From: Dialister sp. UBA734
Lineage (GTDB): Bacteria > Bacillota > Negativicutes > Veillonellales > Dialisteraceae
NCBI GenBank assembly: GCA_002297935.1
Contig: DBLC01000097.1
Coordinates: 13,156-77,155 of the forward strand
Reading direction: 5' to 3'
Length of the DNA stretch: 64,000 nt
Shown here: positions 11,934 to 55,613 of the stretch, one piece after another
Layout of the letters: each line of letters opens with the position of its first letter
Position numbering within the stretch: position 1 is the first letter of the stretch
The notes under the pieces: generated by a model
Seen by the model: the letters and a program-made list of their open reading frames with translations, nothing else
Told to the model about the DNA's origin: nothing
The model's database searches: none
Made by a program: the position numbers and the translations under genes

Positions 11934-11954
11934 CATTAAATTATCGGAACTTAT
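11934..11954. repeat. attL core (CATTAAATTATCGGAACTTAT)
   Basis: Identical 21-mer at 52990-53010, with flanking bases differing on both sides. At attL it forms the spacer plus right arm of a perfect 14-bp inverted repeat (11920-11933 / 11941-11954). Confidence 0.8.
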
Positions 11955-24300: not shown

Positions 24301-27300
24301 GTCCTATGTTGTGCATGGCTACAAGATCTTTCTCTGGTGCTGCAGCCTGATAGTATTTATTGCTTTTGTCAAACTCATTGATTGCTTCCTGTAAAACCTC
24401 GCCATTTTCCCCGATTTTATCGGTGATTTCTTTGACATTTTCTAGCCATTCCTGTATACTATGAGTAAAGATAGGCTTGTCTAAGCTCTGCCCGGTTTTG
24501 GGAACCGGATACAGGTGTTTAGATGAGCCTTCTTTTATTTCTCTCATGCTTGTAATTTCGCCATCGTAAAAATATAAGTTCCCGTTTTTGTCTTTACGAA
24601 CTACAATTCTCGCTATACAGTCTTCATTGCCAATTGTCACTCTCTGCGCATAATAGCGATATGACAGCGTTGTCTGATTTAGCTTTTTAATTCTTCCTAC
24701 GTCCCGGGCTTCTTCGTAAAGGAAAGTTGCTTTTGAAACAACAGCATTCAAATGTGTAAGCATATATAGGTTTCGAAGATCTGCTGAATGGCGTCTAATT
24801 TCTTTTGCCGCAGTTATTGGCATTACTATATTTTCACCATATTTATTAACTACTTTCCCTGGATTTTTGTATCCGTTCGCCATAACCGTAGGTGAGAATA
24901 ATGCGTGAAAAATAGTTTTGATATTTTTTCGTACTGATTCTGTAGTTGGCTGAATTTCTGACTTAGCGCTGCCGTTAACCCAATTTATGACGCTATGAAA
25001 ACTTTCTTGAGTTATACTTTCGGGTTTAGTATTAAACAAGTCGTTGTATCTCTTTACTGTATCCCAGCCTCTAAACCACCTTTTGAAAGAATCGCTATGA
25101 GAAATTAACCACTGACGTTCAGTTAGTTTAGTATGGCTTCCATCAGGTGCCTTCATCCATCGGTCTGTATTTTGAAGTTTTTCTTTAATTTTGGATAATT
25201 CATCTTCAATGTTCTGCTGTGAAAAAGGCAATTCGGCTCTGCCCAAATTAACAACCGCCGGTCCAAATTCGGAGAAATAGTAATCTGGCATGCTCCATTT
25301 TCCAGTAACATATGGATTTTTACCATCAGCGTTTGCTTTGATATCCTGCCAATCCTGATACAACGTTTTGGCTTCATCTGACATTTTATCCAGTTCGTTT
25401 CTCCTATAGGCCATTTTGTCTAATGGATGACGGCTCAAGTAAGTATCAAAAGTATTTTTAGCTTTGATACTTCTATTCATCTGCTGGATAAATTCCTTTT
25501 TGGCTTTGGTATATTCCTCAGCCCGGCCTTCAATCATAAAAGCTTCTGTTTCACCGCCTAACATTCTATAGGCGGTATAGTCGTTTACACTGGACGCCCG
25601 CTTTAATAATTTGATTTCCGCTAAATACCCTTTGATAGCTCTGACTTTTTCAAAGGGTATTTTCTTTTCCATTGCACTAAGCTCTGCATTAATCTTAAAA
25701 AACTTTTCAAAATCACGACAGTTCTCGGCTTCATGGTATTTGTCTAAAAACTCCTGTGCTTCTTTGGTGTCAATTTCCGATTTAAGGGCGAGCTCTAATG
25801 TATGCAGTGTACTTTCCATATCAGCCTTGGCCGTTTCCGGGCTGCCGCCTTTGGAAAAGCCTTGCTCGAATTTATTTTGGATTACATGCTGCAATTCGTG
25901 GATAATGGTTTTCTTCGCTTCTTCCGGATCGGATTTTACGTAGTCCTTGTCTAGGATGATGTGGTCTCCCTGGGTGGCTCCATTGGCCCCTGCGAGTTCT
26001 CCATCTTCATAGGTCAGGAAATCGGCTATGCGAATTTTGGTATCTCTTAGGTCGGGATATGCTTCATAGAGGTCTTCATTGGTATAGATTTCATCGATGT
26101 AACGTTCTTCTTCAGACAGTCTATCCAGGTGAATGCCTTCTAAATCGTCAGGGATTTCAAAGCGCCAAATACCTTCCGGTCCCCTAAGCCATCCCGTCTT
26201 ATTCCATATTTCTTCCGGTACGGCTCCATCCTGTTCCATTTGTTCTGCTTCGCGCAATTTTTCTAACGGCGCCGTTCTGGCATTCTCACCCGCCATCTGC
26301 CCCAGTGCTTCCGGTGCAAGGCCGGTGATTTCTCCGGCTTTGATGGTTGCCAGTTTCAACGGCACGCCGTAGTTCTTATGGAAATTCTCTGCCAGCTTTG
26401 CCAGAATCAAAGCGGAGTCTCTAGCAGCCTGTGTAACTTCTTTGTTTCCTGCTTTGGTGATTTGTTCCAATAGCGGCTTGTATGCCTGTTCGTAGGTATC
26501 AGGATCGAGTAAGGTCTGAGCAACAAGATCTTTCTTATCCAGTGTCTTGATGACTTCTCCGACACGTTCCAAAGATTCGACTTTTGCCTTGGCGGCTTCC
26601 AGTTCCTGGGTTCCCATGTGAGAGTCTTCGCTATTATCATGAAAAACTTCTTTGATGATTTTCTGATGCGCTACATCATACAGTTCTCGCTGGGTAGGTG
26701 CTCTGTCATGGTCACTGTAGAAGTCCTGATACCAGTCCGGATTCTTCGATTCTCGGATATGTACACGGTCGGCACCTTCACCCACGTCGATAAAATCTAC
26801 GCCCTTTTCGCCAGATGTATTGGCGTCCTGTGTCTTTCTTCGTTCCATGTAGTCCTGGAGTTCTTTTACACCGGAAAGATCGCCCCAGGCTTTTTTTGCT
26901 TCTTCTAGCAGACTTTTGTAGTTTTCCTGTAAATGGTCCAATCCGCCGGAAAGGAGTTCTTGGGCTGTGGCCCGGTCTTCTCTCCCTTTTTCAGTGTCTT
27001 CGGAAAAATGATCGTTCAGAATTTTTTCGCTGGCGGCCGCTTCTCTCTTCTCTTTGGTAGAAGTGACAATATCAATCATGTCCTTATAGCGCTGGCGTTC
27101 TTCTTTGATAGCGTGTAGAGTACGTTCTCCCTTGTCCATGGTGGAATAATCAGACAAAACTTCTGGCGTTTCTTCTGAAGCGAGCTGCATATATTTCCCG
27201 GATTCTACGGCCAGTGGCTTGCCTGTTTTAATGGATTCGTCGAGTTCTTTAGCGGAAACAATTCCCTTTTCCACCATTTCGTTCAGTGCTTCATGAGTGG

Positions 27301-29062
27301 ATTCGTTTTCGGCTGCAGCTTGTGCATCGATGTAAACCGTCCCCATATCAGCCTGATCCATCTGTCTTTGAATGGTTTTTCTATAGGTTTCTGGTGCTTT
27401 ATGGTAAAGAGAAGAGTCTTCACGAAGTTCCATAACTTTCTGCAACATGGCATTTTCATTTTGCCTTTTAAATTCTGTGACGGTCTCTTTCATTTCAGAT
27501 AGTCCGGATATTTTCTTCATTGCCTTATAAGCACCAATGCCGCCTAAAGCGGAACCGCCAATAGACATACCAATGACGGACGGTACAGCTTCAACCATGG
27601 CGTCCAGGGCATTGTTGAACATTTCTTTTGCAGAAATTCCGCCTTCGCCATAGATGTTGGTATCTAAATCTGACGTCATAGATTGCAAACCTTCTTCTAC
27701 GGTTTCCGGAATAGCTACTTTGGCAAACTGCTTGCCACCATGAATCAAAGCTTGTTTTCTGATAGCTCCTCTTCCTGCGCCAATCAATTTTTTCATGGCA
27801 TCGGTGTCTTTGATAACAGCAGAAGCAGCTTCACTTCCCCATACTTTGGCAATGCCTTTGAATGCCAGTTCCCAGGCACCCGTTTCAATAGCAGCATTCA
27901 TCATACCTACTCTCTTAGCGTGTCCAATAGCCTGCTCGCGAGTATAGACATGATTTCCGTTTTTACCTTTCTTGGTTCTCCATTCCCAGTAAGCCTGACC
28001 TGCTTCTGCTCTGTACGTGCCTACAAAAACAGAGGCAGTGCCTAACGTGAGTAAGCCGGCAATAGCAGCACCACTGGCAACAGTAGCAGCGGCTGCGGTT
28101 CCTGTCAGTCCTAATGCGCTTGCAGTTGCAGTGCTTCCTAATGTGGCAATTTGTGGGATGTTAGTTTTTGTGGCCTGGAGTGCGGGCTGTGCTAACGGGG
28201 CGATAGGAGCCAAAATTTTTTCTGCCCCTCTCATCATCATGTTTTTCTGCATGGACAACTGAGAAATGGCTTCTCCTACGATCCTAGCCACGTAGGTGTC
28301 TCCCATTTCAGACTTAAATTCTTTCTGCATAGTCATAAGTCCAGGAAGTGCCTTCTCTACATCTTCATCGGAAATTTCGCCGATAGAGGCTTTGTACATG
28401 AGCTCGCTCTGTGCATCCATAGCCTGTCCAGCGTTATAAGCTTTAGTGACAAGGTCAGAGATTTTCCCAAAGATATAACCAGGAAGGCTGTTTATATCTT
28501 TCATAGTAGATTTATAGGTACCCCAAAGAGAAGGGTCGGCATCCATAGTATAAGCAGCCGTTCCTTCCGAAATGGCTCTGCGTGTTTTCAGGATGTTGTT
28601 ATAGTCTCTTAATGCCATAGTAGTGGCTACGGTATCTTCGGTATCTAATTCTGGATACATCTGTGCCACTGTTTGTGGTGTGAATGGCTTCCCCTGCAGA
28701 AAGGCATTGTTTTGCTGCTGTTCATAGGTTAATAAGGCATTCTTGTATAGATCGTCGTTTTCCGCCAATGTCTGCGGGACTAGTCCTAAAGCATTGCCTA
28801 CCTTTTCTGCACTAGCTAGTCTTTCATCTGGGGTCTGTGTATTGGTCTGCACTCGCCAGAACTTTTTCAGCTTATCTATTGTCCCCATAGATTCATCGTC
28901 TAGGAATGTCCAGTCAATCCCGCTTTGAGCGGCTTGCTGTTTTCTCTGACGTTCTTCGTATGGTTCATCCGTCCCCATGGTAGGGATTACTGGGTATTGC
29001 TGCTTAGAGACTTTGGCTTGTCCGGTAAAGACGGCCATGAAGTCGTCATCGTTCATTGGCAT
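18395..29062 (-). CDS. Giant virion-module protein (about 3,555 aa), putative ejected polyvalent protein
   Basis: ORF open to 29146. Best start is ATG 29062 (GGAGGAG 7 nt upstream; TAATG overlap with the upstream stop). Gly/Ala-rich hydrophobic N-terminal region. HELQH at 25886-25900 and HEGAH at 22715-22729. Long K/E coiled coil. Hydrophobic C-terminal third. Confidence 0.85.
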   Translation of the reverse strand: MPMNDDDFMAVFTGQAKVSKQQYPVIPTMGTDEPYEERQRKQQAAQSGIDWTFLDDESMGTIDKLKKFWRVQTNTQTPDERLASAEKVGNALGLVPQTLAENDDLYKNALLTYEQQQNNAFLQGKPFTPQTVAQMYPELDTEDTVATTMALRDYNNILKTRRAISEGTAAYTMDADPSLWGTYKSTMKDINSLPGYIFGKISDLVTKAYNAGQAMDAQSELMYKASIGEISDEDVEKALPGLMTMQKEFKSEMGDTYVARIVGEAISQLSMQKNMMMRGAEKILAPIAPLAQPALQATKTNIPQIATLGSTATASALGLTGTAAAATVASGAAIAGLLTLGTASVFVGTYRAEAGQAYWEWRTKKGKNGNHVYTREQAIGHAKRVGMMNAAIETGAWELAFKGIAKVWGSEAASAVIKDTDAMKKLIGAGRGAIRKQALIHGGKQFAKVAIPETVEEGLQSMTSDLDTNIYGEGGISAKEMFNNALDAMVEAVPSVIGMSIGGSALGGIGAYKAMKKISGLSEMKETVTEFKRQNENAMLQKVMELREDSSLYHKAPETYRKTIQRQMDQADMGTVYIDAQAAAENESTHEALNEMVEKGIVSAKELDESIKTGKPLAVESGKYMQLASEETPEVLSDYSTMDKGERTLHAIKEERQRYKDMIDIVTSTKEKREAAASEKILNDHFSEDTEKGREDRATAQELLSGGLDHLQENYKSLLEEAKKAWGDLSGVKELQDYMERRKTQDANTSGEKGVDFIDVGEGADRVHIRESKNPDWYQDFYSDHDRAPTQRELYDVAHQKIIKEVFHDNSEDSHMGTQELEAAKAKVESLERVGEVIKTLDKKDLVAQTLLDPDTYEQAYKPLLEQITKAGNKEVTQAARDSALILAKLAENFHKNYGVPLKLATIKAGEITGLAPEALGQMAGENARTAPLEKLREAEQMEQDGAVPEEIWNKTGWLRGPEGIWRFEIPDDLEGIHLDRLSEEERYIDEIYTNEDLYEAYPDLRDTKIRIADFLTYEDGELAGANGATQGDHIILDKDYVKSDPEEAKKTIIHELQHVIQNKFEQGFSKGGSPETAKADMESTLHTLELALKSEIDTKEAQEFLDKYHEAENCRDFEKFFKINAELSAMEKKIPFEKVRAIKGYLAEIKLLKRASSVNDYTAYRMLGGETEAFMIEGRAEEYTKAKKEFIQQMNRSIKAKNTFDTYLSRHPLDKMAYRRNELDKMSDEAKTLYQDWQDIKANADGKNPYVTGKWSMPDYYFSEFGPAVVNLGRAELPFSQQNIEDELSKIKEKLQNTDRWMKAPDGSHTKLTERQWLISHSDSFKRWFRGWDTVKRYNDLFNTKPESITQESFHSVINWVNGSAKSEIQPTTESVRKNIKTIFHALFSPTVMANGYKNPGKVVNKYGENIVMPITAAKEIRRHSADLRNLYMLTHLNAVVSKATFLYEEARDVGRIKKLNQTTLSYRYYAQRVTIGNEDCIARIVVRKDKNGNLYFYDGEITSMREIKEGSSKHLYPVPKTGQSLDKPIFTHSIQEWLENVKEITDKIGENGEVLQEAINEFDKSNKYYQAAAPEKDLVAMHNIGLSNLEAAIKLGGFPVPSIAITKKQTPYTGFGDVTLIMNKDTVDPTQTPVFSRDAWTGVFPKTVRVANLKKLQDFMKNVIEPLQRELPRENADYGNLYDSNMLFNVKNKNGDVQRMLESSIDSIGFKYYFLKSINKAPKPKWVKKKLGGTFAEHPTILKACQKLEKKYGKDGLKDLLYEGPYAMLEESPDIKEVNDLLIQETTKESTEGTSAWGKRLRERRKARIANGEELHSLLWDFLKRDEKVFDSRAFETQVSKKVEVNQKAYESWKRSFRNEMLGETVIQDNGKPATLENIVDTMLGKLKNAQTSFAGYGVGNVIASSAKKMNSLKEVHEVADKKMDTSTNTETGLDDSEQYTAVKNKIMDFTNKMADAYKWENKWESYSDAARVLMAMMQGKSFKVSAKKFDFNYSAELEKQAKEIVKEVKALPVKYFEAKPQRAVRFNEVAAAVMPKNAPKEIKDYLRAQGVMIRLYDPKIDGDRERVTNSAQDRAKQYFQNGTRFQGSYDRNQNVIDIFDGANQSTVIHEGAHMFLSMLEDMSQTDTQTLLQYFNGDEKAATASMKRMQDDLSTIRNWAAYSEDHLAEYKGTALEKEFAQHAADIAAGKEGAEERWIQERFARGFEKYLMDGSAPTKEMQGVFRRFKKWLTDIYKTAKNLGNVKLTPEIKDIFDKMLATEDEINAWAAQRKLESIDKAIDVNKSELGNLKEWAENVKQKAQEKAMSYYLSMVKEDAIEQFKDSISTEEAKAEFMTSLADENELYSIEQVYNADAYPTQKDREGFLKLSGFASEKEFKQRLKESGGTSEEQWHKHIADMVQQYKDEALTPEVIKQMAEDILNSPEGLQKKSRIESMLLEKKVTQYINLVTSMQLKLKRAKDKEKVAREIRKRLGLVSEKETSELDKQADTIARSEEKISKLEKQVKTLKEKLETARKEASDAKGENKSRKESAELLENNLRAIEAELEKERAAHEKTQATQKDTEATVADLEGQLKTMVDGLRESRKGMWVDKGTLRKDAYNTMSLETISHATSWKWWQNKAKEADAKAMKCAAENDWDGVAYYKKVEAQNLIMSRQAKLNVDEIKKALHGGGKLTTKETDNNGMERYGILGLINRIGRKENPVLLQDDARYFIQHLAYMCGMTKNDAPMPIDSAGNPRPFSKQAILDMVDPMNMKQLDGASLLFDGSDVIPEWVLDTYFNFDSKPGSFNKLTMNDFRDIVKCMKAVYRIGRREYEGNTLGTSFDNAAKEIVNGLHNVSGLQFFTPFQRKHLFTDKQKKLHVIAKYARSLALPEMYIERLGPAAYNYLYKPIDIATARQREMKEQAKKDIQKIFNTYSRKEWLEIRNDRKYRILDSDELFAKEELLVIALNWGTESNRDRIKDIVREVNPTYDLNKSNWAIDLQEELETYLTDKDWDFVEKVWNHLNSYYAGRSKVQNDLYGVPMGKVPGITFTLKSGRKIRGQYYTIRYDKDLSQRTSEQSVNDMAKQGMKGATTFGIGMGSTKTRTGSGGQILNLSLDLYPKFVDEAIQHTTMREATVDVYKLLCRKDVEESIVNVMGQDGYDFLKQWVVDNWHSPIVEANDWVGFFNRMRCKFNFATMAYRTSTALLNALNIFPLMNEMGPMNALYAIAHFYKDIPYAPRRVAERYRFIKEKSSFMRDRESNMDRDMAQGMRLPVEKGESKLHSTLENGKFGTSNINRYGFWLITKTDYMLSMPQWLATYEGSKRKLQLEHPEMKIEDIDAESVRLADKAVRQTFGSGEIKDRPEIMRNGHWLGQITAFYSYTNLVANWFMRDFYKWKDTGSIRPLAESILFCWVLNAVFEGCMRAAWGDKDDDDKYKNKIVNAFFNGGPIGGIPVIRDCLPWVVNYAVTGKKTGEITPDVGAMDVLNYIPRIMDATKKGDYIEVARNVNKVSNRSYLGFSDTLSDGFWSTVRFCTTENQYTLADLLRSIIFDRPLKAEPKKSKKKEDKK

Positions 29063-31293
29063 TATTCTTCTCCTCCGTTTTCTTCCATGACGTCCATCAT
29101 GGTTTTGGTCCCATCGTTCATATCCTGCAGCTGGGCGGCGCTGCAATAGAAAGATTCGCCATTTCTACCGATTACCTGGAACATTCCATTTCCGTAAGGT
29201 TCATAATCTACAATGCCTGCTCTTGCCAACCCGGCCATAGAAACGTTATAGTCTTCATCGGCACTGAGCCAATGATCTTCGTGGTAAATATTTTTTGTTT
29301 GTACCACTTCCTGCGCGATGCGCTTGATAACATCTTGGCTTGCTGGATAGCCGTTGGGATTAGGAATCATTTCGTATTGGTTATTGCTATACTGATAGAT
29401 CCTCTGTCTTATCAGTCCCATTGTACTGGCGTCGAATTGAGAACTATCTACTCCGGTATAGTCAGCCAGCTCTTTGGCGGATGGTAATTCTACGGAAAAT
29501 TCTTTATCCCCATGTTCATAGCGATTCCACGCCGATTCAACTGAATCTTTCTGCGCATCTGTCAATGCGTACCCGTTATTGGCTGCCAATTCCAGCTTAT
29601 TATCCAAGTCTTCTCTACTGACTATTCCTGTACCTATGAGGCTAATCAGGTTATTTACCATCTTATTGGTCGAATATCCTGTCCCACCTTTCCCAGCAAT
29701 GCTTCTAGCCGATTCTGCTTTTTCTTGTGCTTTGGCATTAGCCATTAGAGACTTGTACTGAGAGGAATCGGCGAAAAGAGGATTACTAGCTGCAATTCGA
29801 TCAATATAAGATTCCTTCTCTTGTGGAGTCATGGTAGACATCGGAATTTTCATATCATCCAATGTTCTTGCAAGAGATTCCTGTTGTTCCTGCTTTCGTT
29901 TCATCCATTCGGATTTGGCCGCTTTTTCTCTATTGACTTCCAGTTGTTCTTTTTCTTCATCAGACATGGACGCCTGCCCTGCATAGTTCTTGGCTCTGGC
30001 TTCCAATCCGGCTGCATAGGTATCTTCGTTGTCTGTGTAATAACCATGTTTTTTCATAAGTCTAGCAACGTCAGAAGGGGAATGAACTGACTTGATTTCT
30101 TCTTCACTGCAGTTATTCTTGATCCAATTCACATAAGACATGGCTGCATCTTCTGGGGTGTTGTAAACCTTGAACTTTGCTTTGGTATAATATTCGTTCC
30201 CGTTTTCATCCAGTTCCCTAGTATTGAGTTCCTGATAGTCACCTTCGCCATCCCATTTGATACCAAAATAATTATTTCCCGGTGCTGCTTCACCGCCGGC
30301 AGATTCAAAGTCGGCTACGGCATAGCCCCATGATGGGTCCCACCCCAATTCTTTTCCGATTTTGTCACCAACGCGTCCTAGGTCAGTTGTACTATGGGTA
30401 ACTTCTAATGGATGGGAGGCACTCCATTTTGCGTAGTAATCTTCAAAAGAACCGGTAAGGCAATTTACATTGTCTTCTGTCATTGCCCCTGTAAAATCTT
30501 TTTTCGTTGTAGATTCTGTTTTGGTAGCAGTAAACAGCGCTTCAAACTTTTTCATGGTAGCTTCGTCGGCCCCCAACGTTCTAAAGTAACCAACCGTATC
30601 CAGGCCCGCTGTATAATCATTTGTCGTTGCCATGGAGTTAAGTGCCTTCTCCGCAATGGAGTTAATCGCCTGCTTTGTCTTCAGGTTCACTGTTGATTCA
30701 TCCCATCCTCTGCCGGCCATATTTGCTCGTAAAAGCGGCATAAAGGTATTCATACTATTTCTCATGTTTTCTGGGCTCCGTATAATCGAATCAACGGTAT
30801 TGTCCAAAAGCGTTTGTGCCTGATTGGTTGCATAAAGATCCAGCTGCTGTTTCTGATACTTGTCGATAGTATCTAACGCTCCGGTTTGCATGGATTCACG
30901 TTTCTGTTTAAAAGCAGCAATGGCATAGTTAGAAGAAATTCCGTGATCTTTCATGATCTGGTTGTATATTTCTTCTTCTCCTTTTTGGTAATCCTCTTGT
31001 AAGGACTCAGCATTTTTCCCTTGATGGGTAACGTAAAGGCCTTTGTTTTCATCATCCATCATAGAATTAACTCTTTGCATATAATCGTTTGTAGCATCTA
31101 TGATTCGATCATTCTGGTCCTTGGTCCACTGTTTCTGCACCATGTCCATGGCGGCCCCTAGCGAGGCATTCAGTGCTCCTGCGCCAGTTTGGTTAGATCC
31201 ATAAGCCGCCGGAGAATCGACAGCCTGGACTTTGCCATTGATGATGTTTTTATTCACATTCGGTGTGAATTGTGTGAGTTTCATCAGTTCCAC
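29062..31293 (-). CDS. Internal virion protein with GH73-like glucosaminidase domain
   Basis: 743 aa. The block DFESAGGEAAPGNNYFGIKW...YTKAKFKVYNTPEDAAMSYVNWI resembles FlgJ / mannosyl-glycoprotein endo-beta-N-acetylglucosaminidase. Positioned among ejection proteins. Confidence 0.65.
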   Translation of the reverse strand: MELMKLTQFTPNVNKNIINGKVQAVDSPAAYGSNQTGAGALNASLGAAMDMVQKQWTKDQNDRIIDATNDYMQRVNSMMDDENKGLYVTHQGKNAESLQEDYQKGEEEIYNQIMKDHGISSNYAIAAFKQKRESMQTGALDTIDKYQKQQLDLYATNQAQTLLDNTVDSIIRSPENMRNSMNTFMPLLRANMAGRGWDESTVNLKTKQAINSIAEKALNSMATTNDYTAGLDTVGYFRTLGADEATMKKFEALFTATKTESTTKKDFTGAMTEDNVNCLTGSFEDYYAKWSASHPLEVTHSTTDLGRVGDKIGKELGWDPSWGYAVADFESAGGEAAPGNNYFGIKWDGEGDYQELNTRELDENGNEYYTKAKFKVYNTPEDAAMSYVNWIKNNCSEEEIKSVHSPSDVARLMKKHGYYTDNEDTYAAGLEARAKNYAGQASMSDEEKEQLEVNREKAAKSEWMKRKQEQQESLARTLDDMKIPMSTMTPQEKESYIDRIAASNPLFADSSQYKSLMANAKAQEKAESARSIAGKGGTGYSTNKMVNNLISLIGTGIVSREDLDNKLELAANNGYALTDAQKDSVESAWNRYEHGDKEFSVELPSAKELADYTGVDSSQFDASTMGLIRQRIYQYSNNQYEMIPNPNGYPASQDVIKRIAQEVVQTKNIYHEDHWLSADEDYNVSMAGLARAGIVDYEPYGNGMFQVIGRNGESFYCSAAQLQDMNDGTKTMMDVMEENGGEE

Positions 31294-48988: not shown

Positions 48989-49276
48989 CTATTCACCGGA
49001 AACATTTCTTTTCGGCTTCTTCTTAGGAAGCTGGCTTCGGATGAACTCCAAAAGGTCCACCCCTTCTTCGATGGCTTGATTGACAAGCTGATTGAAATCC
49101 GACGCTCTCACCTTTCTGGTCCGGCCCCATTTCAAAGTGGGGATAAGCCCGGAGCGAAGAAGATCACCGGCTTCTACTTCTCCCATGTCCCCTGCTTCCA
49201 TGATTTCTTTTCTTCCCAGTAAGGGATCAACTAGTACGTACCTCACTGGTGTGTCTGGTGGTGCTTTGTTTGACAT
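48989..49276 (-). CDS. Putative excisionase / DNA-binding protein
   Basis: 95 aa. EAGDLLRSGLIPTLKWGRTRKVRASDFNQLV resembles excisionase-family winged HTH (weak). Confidence 0.35.
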   Translation of the reverse strand: MSNKAPPDTPVRYVLVDPLLGRKEIMEAGDMGEVEAGDLLRSGLIPTLKWGRTRKVRASDFNQLVNQAIEEGVDLLEFIRSQLPKKKPKRNVSGE

Positions 49277-49303
49277 CGGCTCGTCTCCTTTCTTTTTCCT
49301 CTC

Positions 49304-49312
49304 TGCTATAAT
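49304..49312 (+). promoter_or_regulatory. Extended -10 promoter TGCTATAAT for the plus-strand moron
   Basis: Perfect TGnTATAAT about 25 nt upstream of SD ggaaggaggtga and ATG 49339. Confidence 0.5.
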
Positions 49313-49338
49313 GGGTAAGCAGGAAGGAGGTGATACTT

Positions 49339-49530
49339 ATGAATGACTTGGAAATGAAAGCTCACTTTATCGCTTTGGAATGGATGAAAGATGAAATGTC
49401 TAGGCCTGCTACAATTCCAAATACCCCTGAGACGTATGCTCGTACTTATGAAAATGCATATGAACGCATACTCAAGGTGTTGTCCCATCCTAGCAATACA
49501 TCGGATCATCCTTATCCAATTCATCGATAA
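49339..49530 (+). CDS. Small plus-strand gene embedded in the minus-strand early region (moron-like)
   Basis: 63 aa MNDLEMKAHFIALEWMKDEM... Excellent SD and its own promoter. 3' end overlaps the convergent gene 49490-49681 by 41 nt. Confidence 0.55.
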   Translation: MNDLEMKAHFIALEWMKDEMSRPATIPNTPETYARTYENAYERILKVLSHPSNTSDHPYPIHR

Positions 49531-49681
49531 TTTCTTTTTTCATTGGCATATATCCAGCAAGATTTATTGCAGTGCCTAATACTGCCTTGGTTTGATCCAC
49601 GGTGAAGCCTTTATCTGCTAGCATCAGAAGGAGACTTCTTACCGTGGATTCTTTTTGTTCCTGAAATTCATCAAATGTCAT
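49490..49681 (-). CDS. Hypothetical early protein
   Basis: 63 aa from ATG 49681 (SD gaaggtgag). The upstream part of the ORF-track frame lacks an SD. Confidence 0.45.
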   Translation of the reverse strand: MTFDEFQEQKESTVRSLLLMLADKGFTVDQTKAVLGTAINLAGYMPMKKEIIDELDKDDPMYC

Positions 49682-49780
49682 GTATCTCACCTTCTCTCTT
49701 CTATAGGACTCTGATAATTTAATGGTCTTCACCTTACTTGAATATAATTCTGCATTCATGGCATAAAAAATAGCGGTATA

Positions 49781-49969
49781 TTAATCGTATTTAATTTCGG
49801 AGAGTTTAATATCGAAGTGTTCGCACAACATTGCTACTTTACCAATCGGAACCTTGGCGAGATTATTTTCCCAAGAACAGTAGGTTTGATAGGAAATACC
49901 TAATATTTTAGCAACATCTCGCTGACTTTCTCCCGTTCTAGCTCGAAGTTCTTTTGGTGTAAACTGCAT
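49781..49969 (-). CDS. Cro-like XRE-family HTH regulator
   Basis: 62 aa from ATG 49969 (SD ggaggtg). ESQRDVAKILGISYQTYCSWENN is an XRE HTH. Divergent from the repressor. Confidence 0.75.
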   Translation of the reverse strand: MQFTPKELRARTGESQRDVAKILGISYQTYCSWENNLAKVPIGKVAMLCEHFDIKLSEIKYD

Positions 49970-50121
49970 GATTTCTTCACCTCCCTCACTATTCATTTTC
50001 TATATGTTACATGAACTATATTCAAGTGTCAAGAATTATTTGAATTAAATTCGTGATATCTTGAATATTGTTCAAATATATGATAATATGCTATCAGGTA
50101 ATTAGAAGAGAGGTGACTTTC
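49970..50121. promoter_or_regulatory. Lysis-lysogeny switch region: divergent promoters and TTGAA/TTCAA operator-like repeats
   Basis: TTCAAGTGTCAAGAA (50021-35), TTGAATTAAATTCG (50040-53), TTGAATATTGTTCAA (50061-75). Plus-strand promoter TTGAAT-17-TAATAT (50061-89). Minus-strand TTGACA (50032-27). Confidence 0.45.
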
Positions 50122-50490
50122 ATGCTTGGTGCTAATCTAAAATATTTGCGATTAAAATTCGGTTATTCTCAAGCATATATTGCGCAATATTTGAATAAGA
50201 AATCATTTACAACTGTACAGAAATGGGAATCTGGTGCTGCCGATCCCCCGCTAGGTGTTGTGGGGAAGTTGGCTGAACTATACAAGGTTTCTATTGATGA
50301 TTTATATTACTCTGATTTGTTGCATCCCAAAGTGATTTCTTCTGATATAGTTCTATCCGATTCCGAAAAGGAAATGATAAAAAAATACCGGCAGCTTCCC
50401 CCTGCTGGAAAAGCTGCCGTCGACGCGGTCCTTGATTCTCAGTATGAATTTGTTAAACCTAAGTTATCAGAAAAGATAGAAATATCATAG
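50122..50490 (+). CDS. CI-like XRE-family repressor
   Basis: 122 aa from ATG 50122 (SD gagaggtga). HTH YSQAYIAQYLNKKSFTTVQKWESG. The ORF-track start 50068 is TTG inside the operator region. Confidence 0.75.
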   Translation: MLGANLKYLRLKFGYSQAYIAQYLNKKSFTTVQKWESGAADPPLGVVGKLAELYKVSIDDLYYSDLLHPKVISSDIVLSDSEKEMIKKYRQLPPAGKAAVDAVLDSQYEFVKPKLSEKIEIS

Positions 50491-50513
50491 AGGTTCGGTT
50501 TAGGTGATTACAT

Positions 50514-50948
50514 ATGGATGAAACAGAATATATAGAAAAACGTCTGCAGAATCAAATCAGTTGGTACAGCCAGCAAAGCAAAAAGTGTCAACGTATGTAT
50601 AAAGGGTTAAAAGGCATTAGCTATGCAATGGCCTTGCTCATAGTTCCACTAAGTTACTGGTCGGATGCGGTATGGTGGTTCAAATATGCTAGTGTAGCTG
50701 CTGGTATACTTATTGCTATCTTTGATTTTTCACAGAGCATGAACAAATATCATGAGAATTGGATTCAGTATCGAACAACTGCAGAGCTTCTAAAACACGA
50801 AAAATTCTTGTATCTCACCCATTCAGGCGGATACAAGAATTCTTCTATAGCATTTCAAGATTTAGTTGAACGTTGTGAGAGTATTATTTCTAGTGAAAAC
50901 GTGGATTGGGCACAGCTACACAAAAGCTGTCCTGCTAAAAAGCTTTAA
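50514..50948 (+). CDS. DUF4231 / SLATT-like two-TM protein
   Basis: 144 aa, 23 nt after the repressor stop (SD aggtga). RLQNQISWYSQQSKKCQRMY, two TM helices, then YHENWIQYRTTAELLKHEKFLY. This is the pattern I associate with DUF4231/SLATT. Confidence 0.65.
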   Translation: MDETEYIEKRLQNQISWYSQQSKKCQRMYKGLKGISYAMALLIVPLSYWSDAVWWFKYASVAAGILIAIFDFSQSMNKYHENWIQYRTTAELLKHEKFLYLTHSGGYKNSSIAFQDLVERCESIISSENVDWAQLHKSCPAKKL

Positions 50949-51130
50949 TCTTCTACTGGCTCGTATGTCTTTTCAAAGATGTCCGGTTTACACGGATACT
51001 GTTCTCCCCTGAGACCTGTAATAATCCAGTCTCCCGGTGCGGCACGAAGTGGTCCTTCTAGTGTGGGTATAATTTTCTCTTTGTCTGTTTGATAGGCTTC
51101 TATAACAATAGGGCGTTTTCTGAATTTCAT
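50945..51130 (-). CDS. PGDYG-like small protein (antisense between the SLATT-like and TIR-like genes)
   Basis: 61 aa, SD ggaggt 6 nt upstream. KRPIVIEAYQ...AAPGDWIITGLRGEQYPCKPDIFEKTYE. Its stop overlaps the SLATT gene stop in the palindrome TTAA. Confidence 0.6.
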   Translation of the reverse strand: MKFRKRPIVIEAYQTDKEKIIPTLEGPLRAAPGDWIITGLRGEQYPCKPDIFEKTYEPVED

Positions 51131-51159
51131 GATGTACCTCCATAAAGAAAGAAAAAACT

Positions 51160-51591
51160 ATGTGGAACCAAATAATGAATCAATTACAAATTAAAAATAT
51201 TCATATCTTCATAAGTCATTCCTGGGGTTATGATGATCATTACAATAAAGTCAAAGAATGGATTTCATCTGCCGGTTGGAATATCAGTGATTATAGTATT
51301 CCTCGTAGTAATCCATTGGATACAAAGACAAATGCTCAGTTAAGAGATGGCATTATTGAACATATCCGCCATGCTTCCATTGTTATTATATGCGCTGGTA
51401 TGTATGATTCTTATAGTAACTGGATTCAATTTGAAATCGACACTGCCTTAGCAATGAACAAACCTGTCATTGCAGTAAAGCCATGGGGAAATGTACGTAT
51501 CCCAGCAGCTATTCAAAATAACTCCGATAAAATTCTGGTTGTTAACTGGCAGAAAGATAGTGTCATTTTCGGAATACGTTCATTACTATAA
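51160..51591 (+). CDS. TIR-like domain protein (DUF1863 / ThsB-like)
   Basis: 143 aa. IHIFISHSWGYDDHY...ASIVIICAGMYDSYSNWIQFEIDTALAMNKPVIAV follows the TIR-like (MTH538-type) pattern. Start is only 29 nt from the divergent PGDYG start. Confidence 0.6.
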   Translation: MWNQIMNQLQIKNIHIFISHSWGYDDHYNKVKEWISSAGWNISDYSIPRSNPLDTKTNAQLRDGIIEHIRHASIVIICAGMYDSYSNWIQFEIDTALAMNKPVIAVKPWGNVRIPAAIQNNSDKILVVNWQKDSVIFGIRSLL

Positions 51592-51777
51592 TTATATCAT
51601 CATTTGTCTATGTATTTAAAAAGCCGTACCCATACGCCAATATGGATACGGCTGGTGCTGAAAAGTATTCCAGTACTCTTTCAGCGGTTGTAAATTCCTT
51701 CAAACGTTATCACTGTATGGAGGTTTACTGTTTTATTATAGCAGAAAGAATCCTCCATTTCCATGAAAGGAGATTCT

Positions 51778-52872
51778 ATGTTACGTAAAAGAGGTAAGAA
51801 ATGGTACTACTCTATTGAAACGGAGGATGAGTACGGACGCCGGCAGCGAGTGGAGCGTGTCGGCACGGAGAGTTATGCTGAGACTAAGAAGATGGAAAAG
51901 CAGGCGCAGGCAGAGTATGACAAGAAGCTCCGTATCACCGCGGGGCGGAATGTCACGTTTGAAAAGCTCTTGGACGAATGGAAGGAATCGCTTCCCTATA
52001 CGGGGCTCAAACCGAATACGGTGAAGCGGTACACCACCATCATCGAAAAGCACCTGAAGCCCACCTTGGGCCATCTGCCTTTGAAGCAAATCACGCCCCG
52101 TATGCTGCAGCATTTCCTGAACCAGCAGAAACTCGGGTACTCTTCCCTCAACTCCATGTGTACTGTCATGAAGAAAAGCTTCCGTTATGCGGTGGTGATG
52201 TGCGAGTACCTGGAAACGTCACCGGCTATCTATGTCCGCCCGCCGAAAGAAATCAAAGAAGTCACGGAAGAGGAACCGTTCTCCAGGGACGATCTGGATA
52301 AAATCTTTGAGCGCTTTGCGGACAATGATTTCATCACCGCCATCTACCTGGCTTACTATGCCGGGCTGCGCATCGGCGAGTGTTGCAGCTTGACCTGGCG
52401 AGACGTGGACTTGAAAAGTAATGAACTTCACATTCATACCACCTTGGTGAATAGTGACGGCTGGATGATACAGCCCATTCCAAAGAGCCGCCGGTCCATC
52501 CGCTCGGTGCAGATTTCCACGAAACTCCATGACCACCTGGAGACAGCCCGTTTCCTCATGAATAAGAACCGTTTCAAGTACGGCCCCTACTATGAAGAAT
52601 CTGGTTTCGTTGTCCGTCACGATAACGGCTCCGGGATCACTCCTGACAACATCCGGTATTTCAACCGGTGGTGCAAAGAGACACTCGGCCATGGTTCCTT
52701 CCACACCCTGCGCCACACCTATGCTACCAACCTGCTGGAAGGCGGCGCTGATATCGAACTGGTGAGTAAACAGCTTGGCCACGCGTCTATTTCCGTCACG
52801 GCACAGGTCTACAGCCACGTGCTGGACCGCCGGAAAACCAAGCTGATTTCCATCATTGATGAAGCCTTGTAA
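51778..52872 (+). CDS. int: Tyrosine integrase
   Basis: 364 aa from ATG 51778 (SD aaaggag). Catalytic pattern [29 protein letters not shown]. Next to attR. Confidence 0.9.
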
Positions 52873-52928
52873 AATTGACCGATGTGATATGATAAGAGAA
52901 AAGGCTTTGCCTCACTTTGCCTCTCGAC

Positions 52929-52948
52929 GGTGGCAAAAATGGTGGCAA
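52929..52948. promoter_or_regulatory. Arm-type repeats GGTGGCAA x2 (right end)
   Basis: GGTGGCAA at 52929-36 and 52941-48, 40 bp inside attR. Same doublet as 12083-12102. Confidence 0.55.
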
Positions 52949-52989
52949 AATGGCAGTTTGATTCGATAAATACTGACTTTTTTGAAGAC

Positions 52990-53010
52990 CATTAAATTAT
53001 CGGAACTTAT
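52990..53010. repeat. attR core (CATTAAATTATCGGAACTTAT)
   Basis: Perfect copy of 11934-11954. Confidence 0.8.
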
Positions 53011-53089: not shown

Positions 53090-54073
53090 ATGGACAATCA
53101 TTTTTATATCAGAAATTTTATTACCAAAACGGGACAGCAAGAGGGTTTGTCTCAGAAGAGTATCTTATCTCTGGCAGAAACAAAATCGGAGAACACCATT
53201 GACGCCTATGAATCGGATTGGAATGATTTTTGCGATTGGTGTCGGTACCACAAGCAATCTTCTTTTCCTGCTTCTTCAGAAACTATTGTCAACTATATCA
53301 ATGACTTAGCTGATTTTGCGAAGGCTGCCACCATTCGGCGGCGTATCAGTGCCATTTCGGAAAATTACAATGCGGCAGGACAAATGGATACCAATCCTTG
53401 CAAGGCCTGGATTGTAAAAGAGGCTTTGATTGGGCTTACACGTCTCAAAGGCTCAGTGCAAAAGGGAAAAACTCCTATTTACTGGGAAGAGTTGGAGCAA
53501 ATGGTTTCTTATATGGATACTACCACTTTGAGTGGGCTGCGGGATAAAGCTTTGCTGCTATTGGGATTTATGGGTGCTTTTCGTCGCAGTGAAATCGTGG
53601 GACTTGACGTGGAAGATATCAAGCGATTTCCCCAGGGGATTGTCGTAACGATCAAGAAGTCAAAAACAGACCAAACGCAGCAGGGGCAACAGGTTGGCAT
53701 TCCCTATATACAGGAAAAAGACATGGACGCCATTCAGTCTTTGCAGGCTTGGACGCAGGCGGCAGATATTCATACCGGTCCCCTCTTCCGCAGCTTGCTG
53801 AAGAATGGCAAGGTATCATCTCGTCGGCTCAGTGATAAAAGTGTGAACCTATTGGTAAAGAAATATGTGGCACTGATTGGGCTTGACCCAGAGCTATATG
53901 GGGCCCATAGCCTTCGTCATGGGTTTGCTACTTACGCAGCCCTTCATGGCATAGAGGAACGTTTGATTATGAAACAGACCCGTCATCGTTCTGTGGAAAT
54001 GGTGCGCCGCTATATCAATGAGGCTGATTTGTTTACCAACAACCCGATTTCTATGATTTTTAATAATAAATAG
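53090..54073 (+). CDS. Cre-like tyrosine recombinase (outside the prophage)
   Basis: 327 aa. Layout parallels Cre: N-terminal TIDAYESDWNDFCDWC...FPASSETIVNYINDL, then AFRRSEI, HSLRHGFAT, HRSVEMVRRY (R..HxxR..H..Y). Confidence 0.8.
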   Translation: MDNHFYIRNFITKTGQQEGLSQKSILSLAETKSENTIDAYESDWNDFCDWCRYHKQSSFPASSETIVNYINDLADFAKAATIRRRISAISENYNAAGQMDTNPCKAWIVKEALIGLTRLKGSVQKGKTPIYWEELEQMVSYMDTTTLSGLRDKALLLLGFMGAFRRSEIVGLDVEDIKRFPQGIVVTIKKSKTDQTQQGQQVGIPYIQEKDMDAIQSLQAWTQAADIHTGPLFRSLLKNGKVSSRRLSDKSVNLLVKKYVALIGLDPELYGAHSLRHGFATYAALHGIEERLIMKQTRHRSVEMVRRYINEADLFTNNPISMIFNNK

Positions 54074-54331: not shown

Positions 54332-54598
54332 CTACTTATTTCCCACCACCGGCAATTTCAACGTCTGTCCTGGTGACAAGTAGCCGGAATCACTGATTTG
54401 ATTAAGTTTTTTGATTTGGTGAATATAGTCGCGAATATCCATAGACGCATCTACTTTTTGTGCTGCAATATCCCACAGGGTATCATTCTGCTTTACAACA
54501 ATGGTTTCGTATATTTCTTCTCCAGGAAGTAACGAGGCATTGACACCTAAGCCGCAACATAGTATAGTACATATGAGAAACGCAATGATTCTCTTCAT
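54332..54598 (-). CDS. yneA: YneA-like LysM membrane protein, divergent from lexA
   Basis: 88 aa from ATG 54598 (SD ggaggtg). TM IIAFLICTILCCGLGV, then LysM IVVKQNDTLWDIAAQ...GYLSPGQTLKLPV. Same arrangement as yneA-lexA in Bacillus. Confidence 0.65.
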   Translation of the reverse strand: MKRIIAFLICTILCCGLGVNASLLPGEEIYETIVVKQNDTLWDIAAQKVDASMDIRDYIHQIKKLNQISDSGYLSPGQTLKLPVVGNK

Positions 54599-54855
54599 TC
54601 GGAAACACCTCCAAGAGTTTGCAATGGTAAATATATTTCCAAAAGATTGGCCTTTCTTTTTGGATGCTAAGGGAATGTCAGGAACGTCGTTTCTTACTAT
54701 CATCATGGTAATCGATTTCTCCCATGGATACAAGCGAACGCGACGTTAGAATCTGCACATAATTCACTTTTATTTGCTAATCATCGCGATATAATTTGTT
54801 TACTGCTTTATAAATACTTTACAAGCAGAAAAATCATTGAGTAAGTATATTCTTT

Positions 54856-54971: not shown

Positions 54972-55613
54972 ATGCCAAGAAGAATTGATCGAAGTGAACG
55001 TCCGTTAACCACCCGAGAAAAAGCCATTATTGATTTTATTCGTCAGAAAATCTTAGACTCCGGCTTCCCCCCTACTGTCCGTGAAATTTGTAAAGCCGTA
55101 GGTCTTCGTTCCACCTCTACGGTTCACGCCTATTTGTCTCGTCTGGAAAGTTTGGGCGTCATCAGAAGAGATCCATCCAGTTCCAGAGCCATTGAAATTG
55201 TAGGTGATGTGACCTGGAGAAATAAGAGATTGGTTCCTATGCCGGTGGTTGGGGCTGTCCGTGCGGGCGAACCGATTGTTGCGGATGAACACATTGAAGC
55301 GGTATTCCCTATGCCTGCTGAATTGATTGGCAAGAACAACAGCTGTTTTATGCTGGTAGTTCGCGGCGACAGCATGATCAATGCAGGAATCAATGAAGGA
55401 GACCTGCTGATTGTTTCTGAACAGGACTATGCAGAAAATGGCGATATCGTGGTAGCTCTGGTAGGCAACGATGATGCTACGGTCAAACGTTTCTTCAAAG
55501 AAGATGGACATGTCCGTCTGCAGCCAGAAAATGAAGCCTATGCTCCTATTATTACCAAAGAAGTCACCATTCGCGGCAAGGTCATTGGCTTGTATAGACA
55601 TATGGAACGGTAA
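54972..55613 (+). CDS. lexA: LexA repressor
   Basis: 213 aa. N-terminal winged HTH (PPTVREICKAVGLRSTSTVHAYLSRLE), cleavage site VGAVRAGEP (A-G), S24 peptidase VRGDSM...VKRF. Confidence 0.93.
   Translation: MPRRIDRSERPLTTREKAIIDFIRQKILDSGFPPTVREICKAVGLRSTSTVHAYLSRLESLGVIRRDPSSSRAIEIVGDVTWRNKRLVPMPVVGAVRAGEPIVADEHIEAVFPMPAELIGKNNSCFMLVVRGDSMINAGINEGDLLIVSEQDYAENGDIVVALVGNDDATVKRFFKEDGHVRLQPENEAYAPIITKEVTIRGKVIGLYRHMER

Follow-up and report, generated by a model that had tools for sequence, protein, structure and literature searches.

What could a prophage gain from a gene for a 61-amino acid (aa) protein that runs backwards between two genes of apparent antiviral defense? The question is raised by a 64,000-nucleotide stretch of DNA from Dialister sp. 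UBA734 (contig DBLC01000097.1, positions 13,156 to 77,155; the window hereafter), in which a gene for a SLATT domain protein and a gene for a TIR-like protein, both located between a phage repressor and an integrase, are separated by a PGDYG family gene on the opposite strand. The answer that we develop here, and to which we assign a probability of about 0.45, is that this trio of genes is a prophage-borne type VII Thoeris system with a three-gene architecture and a built-in antagonist, the PGDYG protein.

The genes of immediate concern are these.

50122-50490, plus strand: CI-like helix-turn-helix (HTH) repressor (Pfam HTH_3, E 2.9e-12; PHROG transcriptional repressor/regulator families)
50514-50948, plus strand: SLATT/DUF4231 open reading frame (ORF), 144 aa, beginning 23 nt past the repressor stop
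50945-51130, minus strand: PGDYG ORF, 61 aa, its ATG preceded by GGAGG at a distance of 6 nt
51160-51591, plus strand: TIR-like ORF, 143 aa, ThsB-like
51763-52872, plus strand: tyrosine integrase (Pfam Phage_integrase, E 2e-23; Phage_int_SAM_3, E 2.6e-14)

The SLATT and TIR genes share a strand and lie 211 nt apart. The PGDYG and SLATT genes meet tail to tail in an overlap of 4 nt, their stop codons sharing the TTAA at 50945-50948, and the PGDYG and TIR genes start divergently, with 29 nt between the two ATG codons. The repressor frame is open from 50068, its likeliest start being the ATG at 50122, which is preceded by GAGG, and it ends at 50490. All of the geometry in the original prediction, which had been made from the sequence alone (the ORFs, the 23-nt gap, the TTAA stop overlap, the 29-nt start spacing, and the GGAGG), was recovered on reading the sequence, and the HTH_3 and Phage_integrase matches bear out the placement of the module between a CI-like repressor and an integrase.

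The three domain assignments also stood up in searches with hidden Markov models (HMMs) of Pfam, PADLOC, and PHROG. The TIR ORF matches the Pfam family ThsB_TIR (PF08937, E 1.6e-14) and the PADLOC ThsB model (E 4.6e-14), and contains the motif W88-IQF-E92 (W88-x3-E92), in which E92 is the predicted catalytic glutamate. This residue is invariant in 33 homologs, is present in at least 95% of 40 trios, and aligns, in BLASTP, with the glutamate of WIQKEID in the experimentally validated ThsB of Pseudohongiella. An AlphaFold2 (AF2) model of the TIR protein, with a predicted local distance difference test score (pLDDT) of 81.5, was matched by Foldseek to a Bacillus cereus TIR (8fz9), EcThsB (8wcf), and the ThsB-Tad3 complex (9b7d), so that the structural check proposed along with the assignments yields a predicted ThsB fold with an invariant candidate catalytic glutamate. 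The SLATT ORF matches Pfam DUF4231 (E 2.3e-20), SLATT_1 (E 1.9e-12), and phrog_7395 (E 1e-43); its hydropathy profile contains two hydrophobic helices, spanning roughly residues 31-50 and 52-76, and W83, Y86, R87, E91, E96, E122, E128, and W132 are invariant among 37 homologs. Within the module, the ThsB models of PADLOC match the TIR protein only, and PADLOC has no model for SLATT or PGDYG.

Type VII Thoeris was described in a preprint of December 2025 as a combination of a TIR protein, ThsB, with a SLATT effector, ThsH (bioRxiv 10.64898/2025.12.03.692087). Three such systems, those of Bacillus licheniformis SCCB 37 and Pseudohongiella among them, protect Escherichia coli or Bacillus subtilis; their TIR proteins produce canonical cyclic ADP-ribose (cADPR) upon infection; cADPR in the medium (1 mM) is toxic to cells that carry the system; neither Tad1 nor MoTad2 inhibits it; and in the validated systems the two genes are direct neighbors, numbered consecutively in IMG (same preprint). 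We took the TIR-domain sequences in Table S1 of that preprint as the reference ThsB set. BLASTP aligned the window TIR with the validated type VII ThsB of Pseudohongiella nitratireducens at 38% identity (E 2e-34); the window TIR is also 38% identical to the type VIII ThsB of Yersinia enterocolitica and 36% identical to the type IV ThsB of E. coli 328, and in the preprint these type IV (N7-cADPR), VII, and VIII proteins fall in one TIR cluster. The effector is bridged by a Nitrospirota locus, where a ThsB 58% identical to the validated one is paired with a SLATT protein 45% identical to that of the window.

On these homologies, the module is very probably a type VII-like Thoeris defense, and its SLATT-TIR core pair belongs, by sequence, to the kind of system described in late 2025. 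In all validated examples of type VII, the two genes are directly adjacent and co-transcribed, whereas at this locus a reversed 61-aa gene lies between the two and their order is inverted; we treat the intervening gene as making the locus a variant of type VII and not as a bar to the mechanism. The notion of a prophage defense cassette is thus sustained at the level of homology, the TIR protein being related to a validated type VII ThsB and the SLATT protein to one that is paired with a 58%-identical relative of this ThsB. The accompanying claim that a minimal TIR and SLATT pair had not been characterized is out of date: the pair is type VII Thoeris of the 2025 preprint, and its phage neighborhoods had been noted in 2022, but the embedded antisense gene is undescribed. 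The earlier survey, by Aravind and colleagues (PMC9503650), reported TIR-SLATT neighborhoods in firmicute phages, sometimes with an HTH protein and a zincin peptidase, with Javan281 and SN10 as examples; superinfection exclusion is the sole role that it suggests, and the PGDYG gene and its antisense orientation go unmentioned there.

Could the pair instead serve the prophage as a device for lysis or addiction, SLATT being a holin-like toxin that is regulated by the TIR or PGDYG protein? The SLATT protein is small and has two transmembrane (TM) helices, and HicAB and ParE/RelB toxin-antitoxin pairs occur near some of the loci. Even so, we consider such a device exceedingly improbable: the TIR protein is homologous to validated Thoeris components, the lysis genes of the prophage, among which we count a glucosaminidase ORF at 29062-31293, lie away from the module, and the module is co-oriented with the repressor and not with the late genes.

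The next question is whether the reversed gene belongs to the system. We retrieved 115 loci from genomes and viral contigs via SLATT homologs and ran iterated HMMs against the ORFs of all six frames. Of 118 SLATT-anchored loci, 62 have a SLATT gene, then a reversed PGDYG gene, then a TIR gene; in all 62, PGDYG is antisense and ends between -37 and +33 nt from the SLATT stop. Overall, the trio was seen in more than 90 loci, mostly lysogeny modules of Bacillota prophages, with additional cases in Fusobacterium and Bacteroidota; the hosts include Lachnospiraceae, Clostridiaceae, Selenomonas, Megasphaera, Brevibacillus, Paenibacillus, Anoxybacteroides, Thermoanaerobacterium, Limnochordia, Fusobacterium, and Tidjanibacter (Bacteroidota). 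All five close PGDYG proteins whose contigs were examined sit in trios. Most trios are located between a repressor, of varying kind, and an integrase of the tyrosine or serine type, and some are found away from lysogeny modules, in a complete Brevibacillus genome and in Limnochordia. In the isolated Clostridioides difficile phage phiCDKH01, genes 16, 15, and 14 form the trio, and the PGDYG gene of this phage was the only return of a DNA-level search of phage genomes. In eight Fusicatenibacter-type prophages, the trio and a serine integrase are constant, and a variable hotspot between a repressor-ImmA pair and the trio is occupied by Fic, DUF6978, and DUF1828/1829 genes, by a T5orf172/MUG113 protein, or by unknown genes.

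In a neighbor-joining tree of 96 SLATT proteins, all 43 trio members fall in a single clade of 44 tips, the lone exception coming from a truncated contig. The trio is retained through SLATT divergence to about 30% identity, and among 40 distinct trios the median pairwise identity is 46% for SLATT, 45% for TIR, and 69% for PGDYG. The neighborhood conservation by which the original prediction proposed to judge the module is accordingly strong, with 62 SLATT-anchored trios from a single SLATT clade. Two-gene relatives, from Pseudomonadota, Nitrospirota, and other groups, have TIR followed by SLATT with overlapping ends, and this opposite gene order rules out derivation of the trio from a two-gene operon by insertion. 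A further configuration was observed at nine loci in Chlorobiaceae metagenome-assembled genomes, where SLATT is followed by a convergent gene for a TIR-containing protein of about 300-510 aa and there is no minimal ThsB.

A second arrangement is found in the satellite prophage Javan281 of Streptococcus (MK448397.1, 2420-3715): a SLATT gene is followed, with a 4-nt overlap, by a divergent 197-aa TIR-like gene, and a convergent PGDYG gene ends 10 nt past the TIR stop, antisense to the pair yet outside it. This arrangement independently links a convergent PGDYG gene to a TIR-SLATT pair. It bears on the simplest alternative, that PGDYG is an unrelated passenger, an ordinary gene of the lytic cycle trapped between two defense genes. 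In favor of a passenger, 19 of 40 close homologs from viral contigs are free-standing genes of lytic modules, and more distant relatives occur in packaging modules. Set against this are the presence of the trio in 43 of the 44 members of the SLATT clade, down to about 30% SLATT identity, its persistence across integrases, repressors, hosts, and non-prophage loci, and the convergent PGDYG gene of Javan281. Among the rival explanations, this is the one most clearly disfavored by the data, and we regard it as very unlikely; PGDYG is probably coupled functionally to the TIR-SLATT pair. The monophyletic, conserved, and widespread three-gene form with its reversed PGDYG gene appears to be undescribed.

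Selection on the PGDYG gene acts on its protein. By the Nei-Gojobori method, the proportion of nonsynonymous differences (pN) is 0.37 for SLATT, 0.375 for TIR, and 0.18 for PGDYG, and the proportion of synonymous differences (pS) is about 0.8 for all three (0.80 for PGDYG); the low pN at equal pS implies that PGDYG is a real gene under a protein-level constraint stronger than that on its neighbors. In the 40 trios, 27 PGDYG residues are conserved in at least 95% of the sequences. Y13, W35, Y45, K48, D50, and Y56 are invariant. Conservation due to a DNA or RNA element is ruled out by the saturated synonymous sites together with the lack of an Rfam match.

The window PGDYG protein is a minimal form, without the insert of about 30 aa found in the 93-aa proteins of the family. 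It matches Pfam PF14083 over profile positions 1-35 with 27.1 bits (gathering score 27.0) and has the PGD[YW] motif; its match to phrog_419 (E 3e-25) is far stronger, and phmmer relates it to the SPO1L2 homolog, which is 97% identical to SPO1 gp34.82, with E 5e-16. The AF2 model (pLDDT 81) is small and beta-rich, with five strands and one short helix, and among predicted viral structures it matches only PGDYG or unnamed phage proteins. PGDYG proteins form a very large family: 17,580 representative clusters were collected at E up to 1e-3, 4,944 close PGDYG clusters were found, a single PGDYG sequence is indexed in 1003 blocks of the assembly collection, and 861 of 50,697 phage genomes carry the domain, SPO1 gp34.82 and SPP1 gene 5 being examples. 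The domain can also be repeated: a 3743-aa metagenomic representative contains 28 tandem PGDYG repeats together with Annexin, AAA_33, and Zeta-toxin-like domains, and two others, of 892 and 1452 aa, contain several repeats each.

Outside the trios, the company that PGDYG keeps is informative. We surveyed 99 longer, multidomain PGDYG representatives and found these fusions.

Tad2-like C-terminal partner: 4 of 99, for example one in which the Tad2-like match scores 79 bits over the whole model
PF21825 (Sequestin 3'cADPR sponge family) C-terminal partner: 1 of 99
Lar restriction-alleviation domain as C-terminal partner: 1 of 99
DUF551 as C-terminal partner: 4 of 99

One of the PGDYG-Tad2 fusions is encoded in the early lytic region of a phage. 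Sequestin itself was discovered through its fusion to Tad2 and Acb4 (10.1101/2025.07.12.664507). Similarity to Tad2 is confined to the fusions, and a relationship of PGDYG to Tad2/DUF2829 was rejected: the window protein has no Tad2-like Pfam match and no match among PDB sequences, and Foldseek found no similarity.

In an unbiased sample of 40 close PGDYG homologs from viral contigs, 21 are in trios and 19 are free-standing, the latter mostly co-directional with their neighbors and in lytic modules. This rules out a short conserved PGDYG subfamily exclusive to trios. No residues discriminate the free copies: median identity is 70.5% between trio and free proteins and 69.9% among trio proteins, and just one column discriminates weakly. 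Among the neighbors of free PGDYG genes (n=49), Sequestin is the commonest Pfam family (3 of 49), the others including portal, MuF, ADP-ribosyltransferase, DnaB, and DUF551, which suggests small anti-defense clusters. PF21825 genes are directly adjacent to PGDYG at several free loci (such as L147, 1687-2019), and elsewhere the adjacent genes encode an ADP-ribosyltransferase exoenzyme or MuF and portal proteins. Circumstantially, the phage SBSphiC, which triggers the Bacillus type VII system (bioRxiv 10.64898/2025.12.03.692087), has no PGDYG gene; SPO1, SP82G, and several SPO1-like phages have one. The fusions and the adjacency to Sequestin are suggestive of an antagonist or counter-defense role, and these links between PGDYG and sponge families appear to be undescribed so far.

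The same observations bear on the view that PGDYG is a positive third subunit, for instance an adaptor through which the TIR protein senses a phage cue or a gating cofactor of the SLATT pore. Strict co-occurrence and the single origin of the trio are what one would expect of such a subunit, as are the retention of the trio outside prophages and a purifying selection on PGDYG that exceeds that on the two enzymes. Yet components of a pathway are normally co-transcribed, and PGDYG without exception lies on the opposite strand, in convergent orientation; homologous systems of two genes provide defense in its absence; indistinguishable PGDYG proteins are common in virulent and lytic-module settings where neither a TIR nor a SLATT gene is near; and the domain is fused to anti-defense domains. 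We therefore judge a positive subunit unlikely.

If PGDYG is an antagonist, the system might work as follows. In the lysogen, the abortive-infection pair would be expressed, from its slot, along with the repressor. The TIR protein would detect an infecting phage and convert NAD+ to a cyclic ADP-ribose signal, most likely canonical cADPR by analogy with the validated relatives; the two-TM SLATT protein would bind the signal and form oligomers in the membrane, and the ensuing death or arrest of the cell would abort the infection. PGDYG would be an integral third component that antagonizes this pathway, most plausibly by binding or destroying the ADPR-derived signal and less plausibly by binding ThsB or ThsH directly. 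Its likely purpose would be to spare the prophage's own lytic cycle from abortive infection or to set the threshold of activation. We hold the antagonist or off-switch role of PGDYG tentatively, at odds somewhat short of even, and a function specifically as a signal sponge is rather unlikely. Because Tad1 and MoTad2 fail on type VII, its inhibitor is still missing. In a broader version of the idea, PGDYG would be a very large, unrecognized family of antagonists of ADPR-based immune signaling, perhaps the missing inhibitor of the canonical-cADPR types VII and VIII; temperate phages would have wired a copy of it backwards into their own Thoeris VII cassette, to be disarmed by it, as protein and as antisense transcript, at the lytic switch. 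This version is doubtful.

The antisense part of this scheme concerns the transcription of the locus, for which the relevant signals in the window are the following.

50389..50419, minus strand: terminator-like hairpin with a 13-bp stem, 8 GC pairs, and T7, within the 3'-terminal part of the repressor gene (consensus)
51620..51591, minus strand: promoter-like site TTTAAA-18-TGnTATAAT, directly past the TIR stop and directed towards PGDYG (consensus)
51653..51622, minus strand: terminator-like hairpin of 14 bp, just upstream of that promoter; similar in 6 of 27 trios

The first hairpin lies 95 nt beyond the SLATT start and is a candidate 3' end of the PGDYG transcript; it is embedded in the C-terminal coding sequence of the repressor (KKYRQLPPAGKAAV), and the repressor of another locus (L003) keeps a similar peptide, KKYRQLNADGK. 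The hairpin at 51653..51622 would shield the module against minus-strand transcription that enters on the integrase and attachment site (att) side, and the window signals together would bracket a PGDYG transcript of about 1.2 kb that is antisense to both defense genes. Judging from consensus matches, the module seems to be equipped with a minus-strand promoter and minus-strand terminators of its own. Among 27 non-redundant trios, terminators within 250 nt upstream of SLATT were found on the minus strand in 12 and on the plus strand in 1, and promoter-like sites just upstream of the PGDYG start in 13 and 6, respectively; from -10 to +40 nt of the TIR stop, such sites were found on the minus strand in 9 of 26 non-redundant trios and on the plus strand in 4. 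Given the convergent placement, with no room for a terminator before thsH and 29 nt to thsB, the PGDYG and thsH-thsB transcripts are necessarily antisense to each other, and with mutually antisense transcripts the expression of the defense genes and that of the antagonist are mutually opposed. The original prediction had suggested that this geometry, with read-through transcription in the lysogen, could act as a switch between lysogenic and lytic states. The antisense geometry stands and makes such a switch conceivable, whereas repressor read-through is not the whole logic, since the trio also occurs outside lysogeny modules, in Brevibacillus and Limnochordia.

Perhaps, then, the RNA product is what matters, a long antisense RNA or transcriptional interference tuning thsH and thsB, with the peptide secondary. 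Such a role would suit the overlapping stops, the 29 nt between the PGDYG and TIR starts, and the minus-strand promoter-like site past the TIR stop with its bracketing terminators, both of which recur in other trios. We nevertheless find it distinctly unlikely as the main explanation: with synonymous sites saturated (pS 0.80) and pN at 0.18, selection is on the protein, PGDYG is conserved where it overlaps nothing, and there is no Rfam match. RNA-level and protein-level mechanisms of PGDYG are compatible, not exclusive.

Several observations weigh against a three-gene Thoeris with PGDYG as its antagonist. Foldseek found no significant match in the PDB for the PGDYG model, the best being Tudor/SH3-like with E 0.5, and by the same comparison its fold is unrelated to those of Tad1, Tad2, Sequestin, Lockin, and Acb. 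The window PGDYG is acidic (pI, the isoelectric point, 5.4), whereas the known sponges have basic pockets, and it is conserved across phyla to a very high degree that sponges do not usually reach and that a partner of some conserved cellular machine might equally show. Full-length relatives are often found in packaging and head modules, as with SPP1 gene 5, which allows a non-immune lytic function, and the numbers of fusions and neighbors are low. The promoters and terminators are consensus matches on A+T-rich sequence, modestly enriched, and serve as leads. The PGDYG promoter has no CI-operator-like repeat, and a repressor operator at that site finds no support, the only TTGAA-N5-TTCAA palindrome in 49001-53000 being in the cro/cI intergenic region, at 50061. 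The signal isomer is not readable from sequence, because the cluster of the window TIR includes a type IV N7-cADPR enzyme 36% identical to it. Of the papers open to full-text search, none contains PGDYG or PF14083.

The element that carries the module is a prophage of about 41 kb, bounded in the window by a 21-bp direct repeat that was located by an exact repeat search. The minus strand carries its lytic genes, and the plus strand, at the right end, its lysogeny genes. The three module genes have a G+C content of 35-42%, compared with 52% in the integrase and 45% in the remaining prophage; the low G+C of the module is typical of an acquired cassette. The remaining features of this end are as follows.

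49781-49996, minus strand: Cro-like HTH gene, the first of the lytic strand (Pfam HTH_3, E 4.5e-07)
49997-50121: divergent switch region, marked by the Cro-like gene
50032..50004, minus strand: promoter-like site TTGACA-17-TAACAT (consensus match)
52990-53010: attR, the 21-bp direct repeat CATTAAATTATCGGAACTTAT (exact repeat search), its partner attL being at 11934-11954

Directly outside attR lies a gene for a Xer-like tyrosine recombinase (53090-54073, plus strand), so that the prophage adjoins a recombinase gene; beyond it are a LysM protein (54332-54733, minus strand) and an apparent host LexA (S24-type, judged by eye; 54972-55613, plus strand). Elsewhere in the prophage, a 3583-aa ORF (18395-29146, minus strand) encodes a large polyvalent protein with a PBECR5 nuclease (E 1.4e-37), LPD23, LPD3, and an eCIS core domain, a multi-effector protein unusually large for a 41-kb prophage.

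The three-gene form is apparently very common in gut Bacillota prophages, and type VII has been defined from two-gene operons; detection rules that demand adjacent genes may miss the trio. The locus bears on how a prophage with an abortive-infection system spares its own lytic cycle, and PGDYG offers a testable 61-aa candidate inhibitor of canonical-cADPR Thoeris, which Tad1 and MoTad2 leave uninhibited. If the proposal is true, it would provide the first function for the PGDYG family, with its roughly 17,600 representative clusters, and describe a defense system with built-in anti-defense, one that guards the lysogen for as long as the prophage stays silent and is turned off at the prophage's own lytic switch.

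Among known systems, type VII Thoeris is the closest. The module shares with it a minimal ThsB, TIR-only and from the same sequence cluster, a two-TM SLATT, and the location of both genes on one strand at one locus, and by analogy the same chain would be expected, from infection through TIR-made cADPR and SLATT oligomerization to membrane failure. It differs in gene order, the two-gene relatives having TIR then SLATT with overlapping ends and the window having SLATT, reversed PGDYG, and TIR, and in that the trio form occurs mostly in prophage lysogeny modules. The phage TIR-SLATT loci of Aravind and colleagues are the same type of firmicute phage locus; HTH and zincin genes are at times present in trio loci as well, and Javan281 has PGDYG beside the pair. 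The cI-rexA-rexB operon of lambda likewise has genes downstream of and co-oriented with the repressor that are expressed in the lysogen and abort superinfection, but its proteins are not related to those of the module, and no antisense gene is embedded in rexAB.

With the sponges of immune signals (Tad1, Tad2/PF11195, Sequestin/PF21825, Lockin, Acb2/4, and TadIV-1), PGDYG has in common that it is small, phage-enriched, and extremely widespread, and that it occurs in fusions with Tad2-like and Sequestin domains and beside Sequestin genes, the signature behind the discovery of Sequestin; it differs in its acidity, in the lack of sequence or fold similarity to solved sponges, and in that the window copy lies inside a defense locus and not in a lytic anti-defense cluster. 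The ring nucleases of type III CRISPR systems offer a parallel that is conceptual only, as fold, signal, and system all differ: there, one family, with host Crn and viral AcrIII-1 members, serves both as counter-defense of viruses and as the off-switch of a defense locus.

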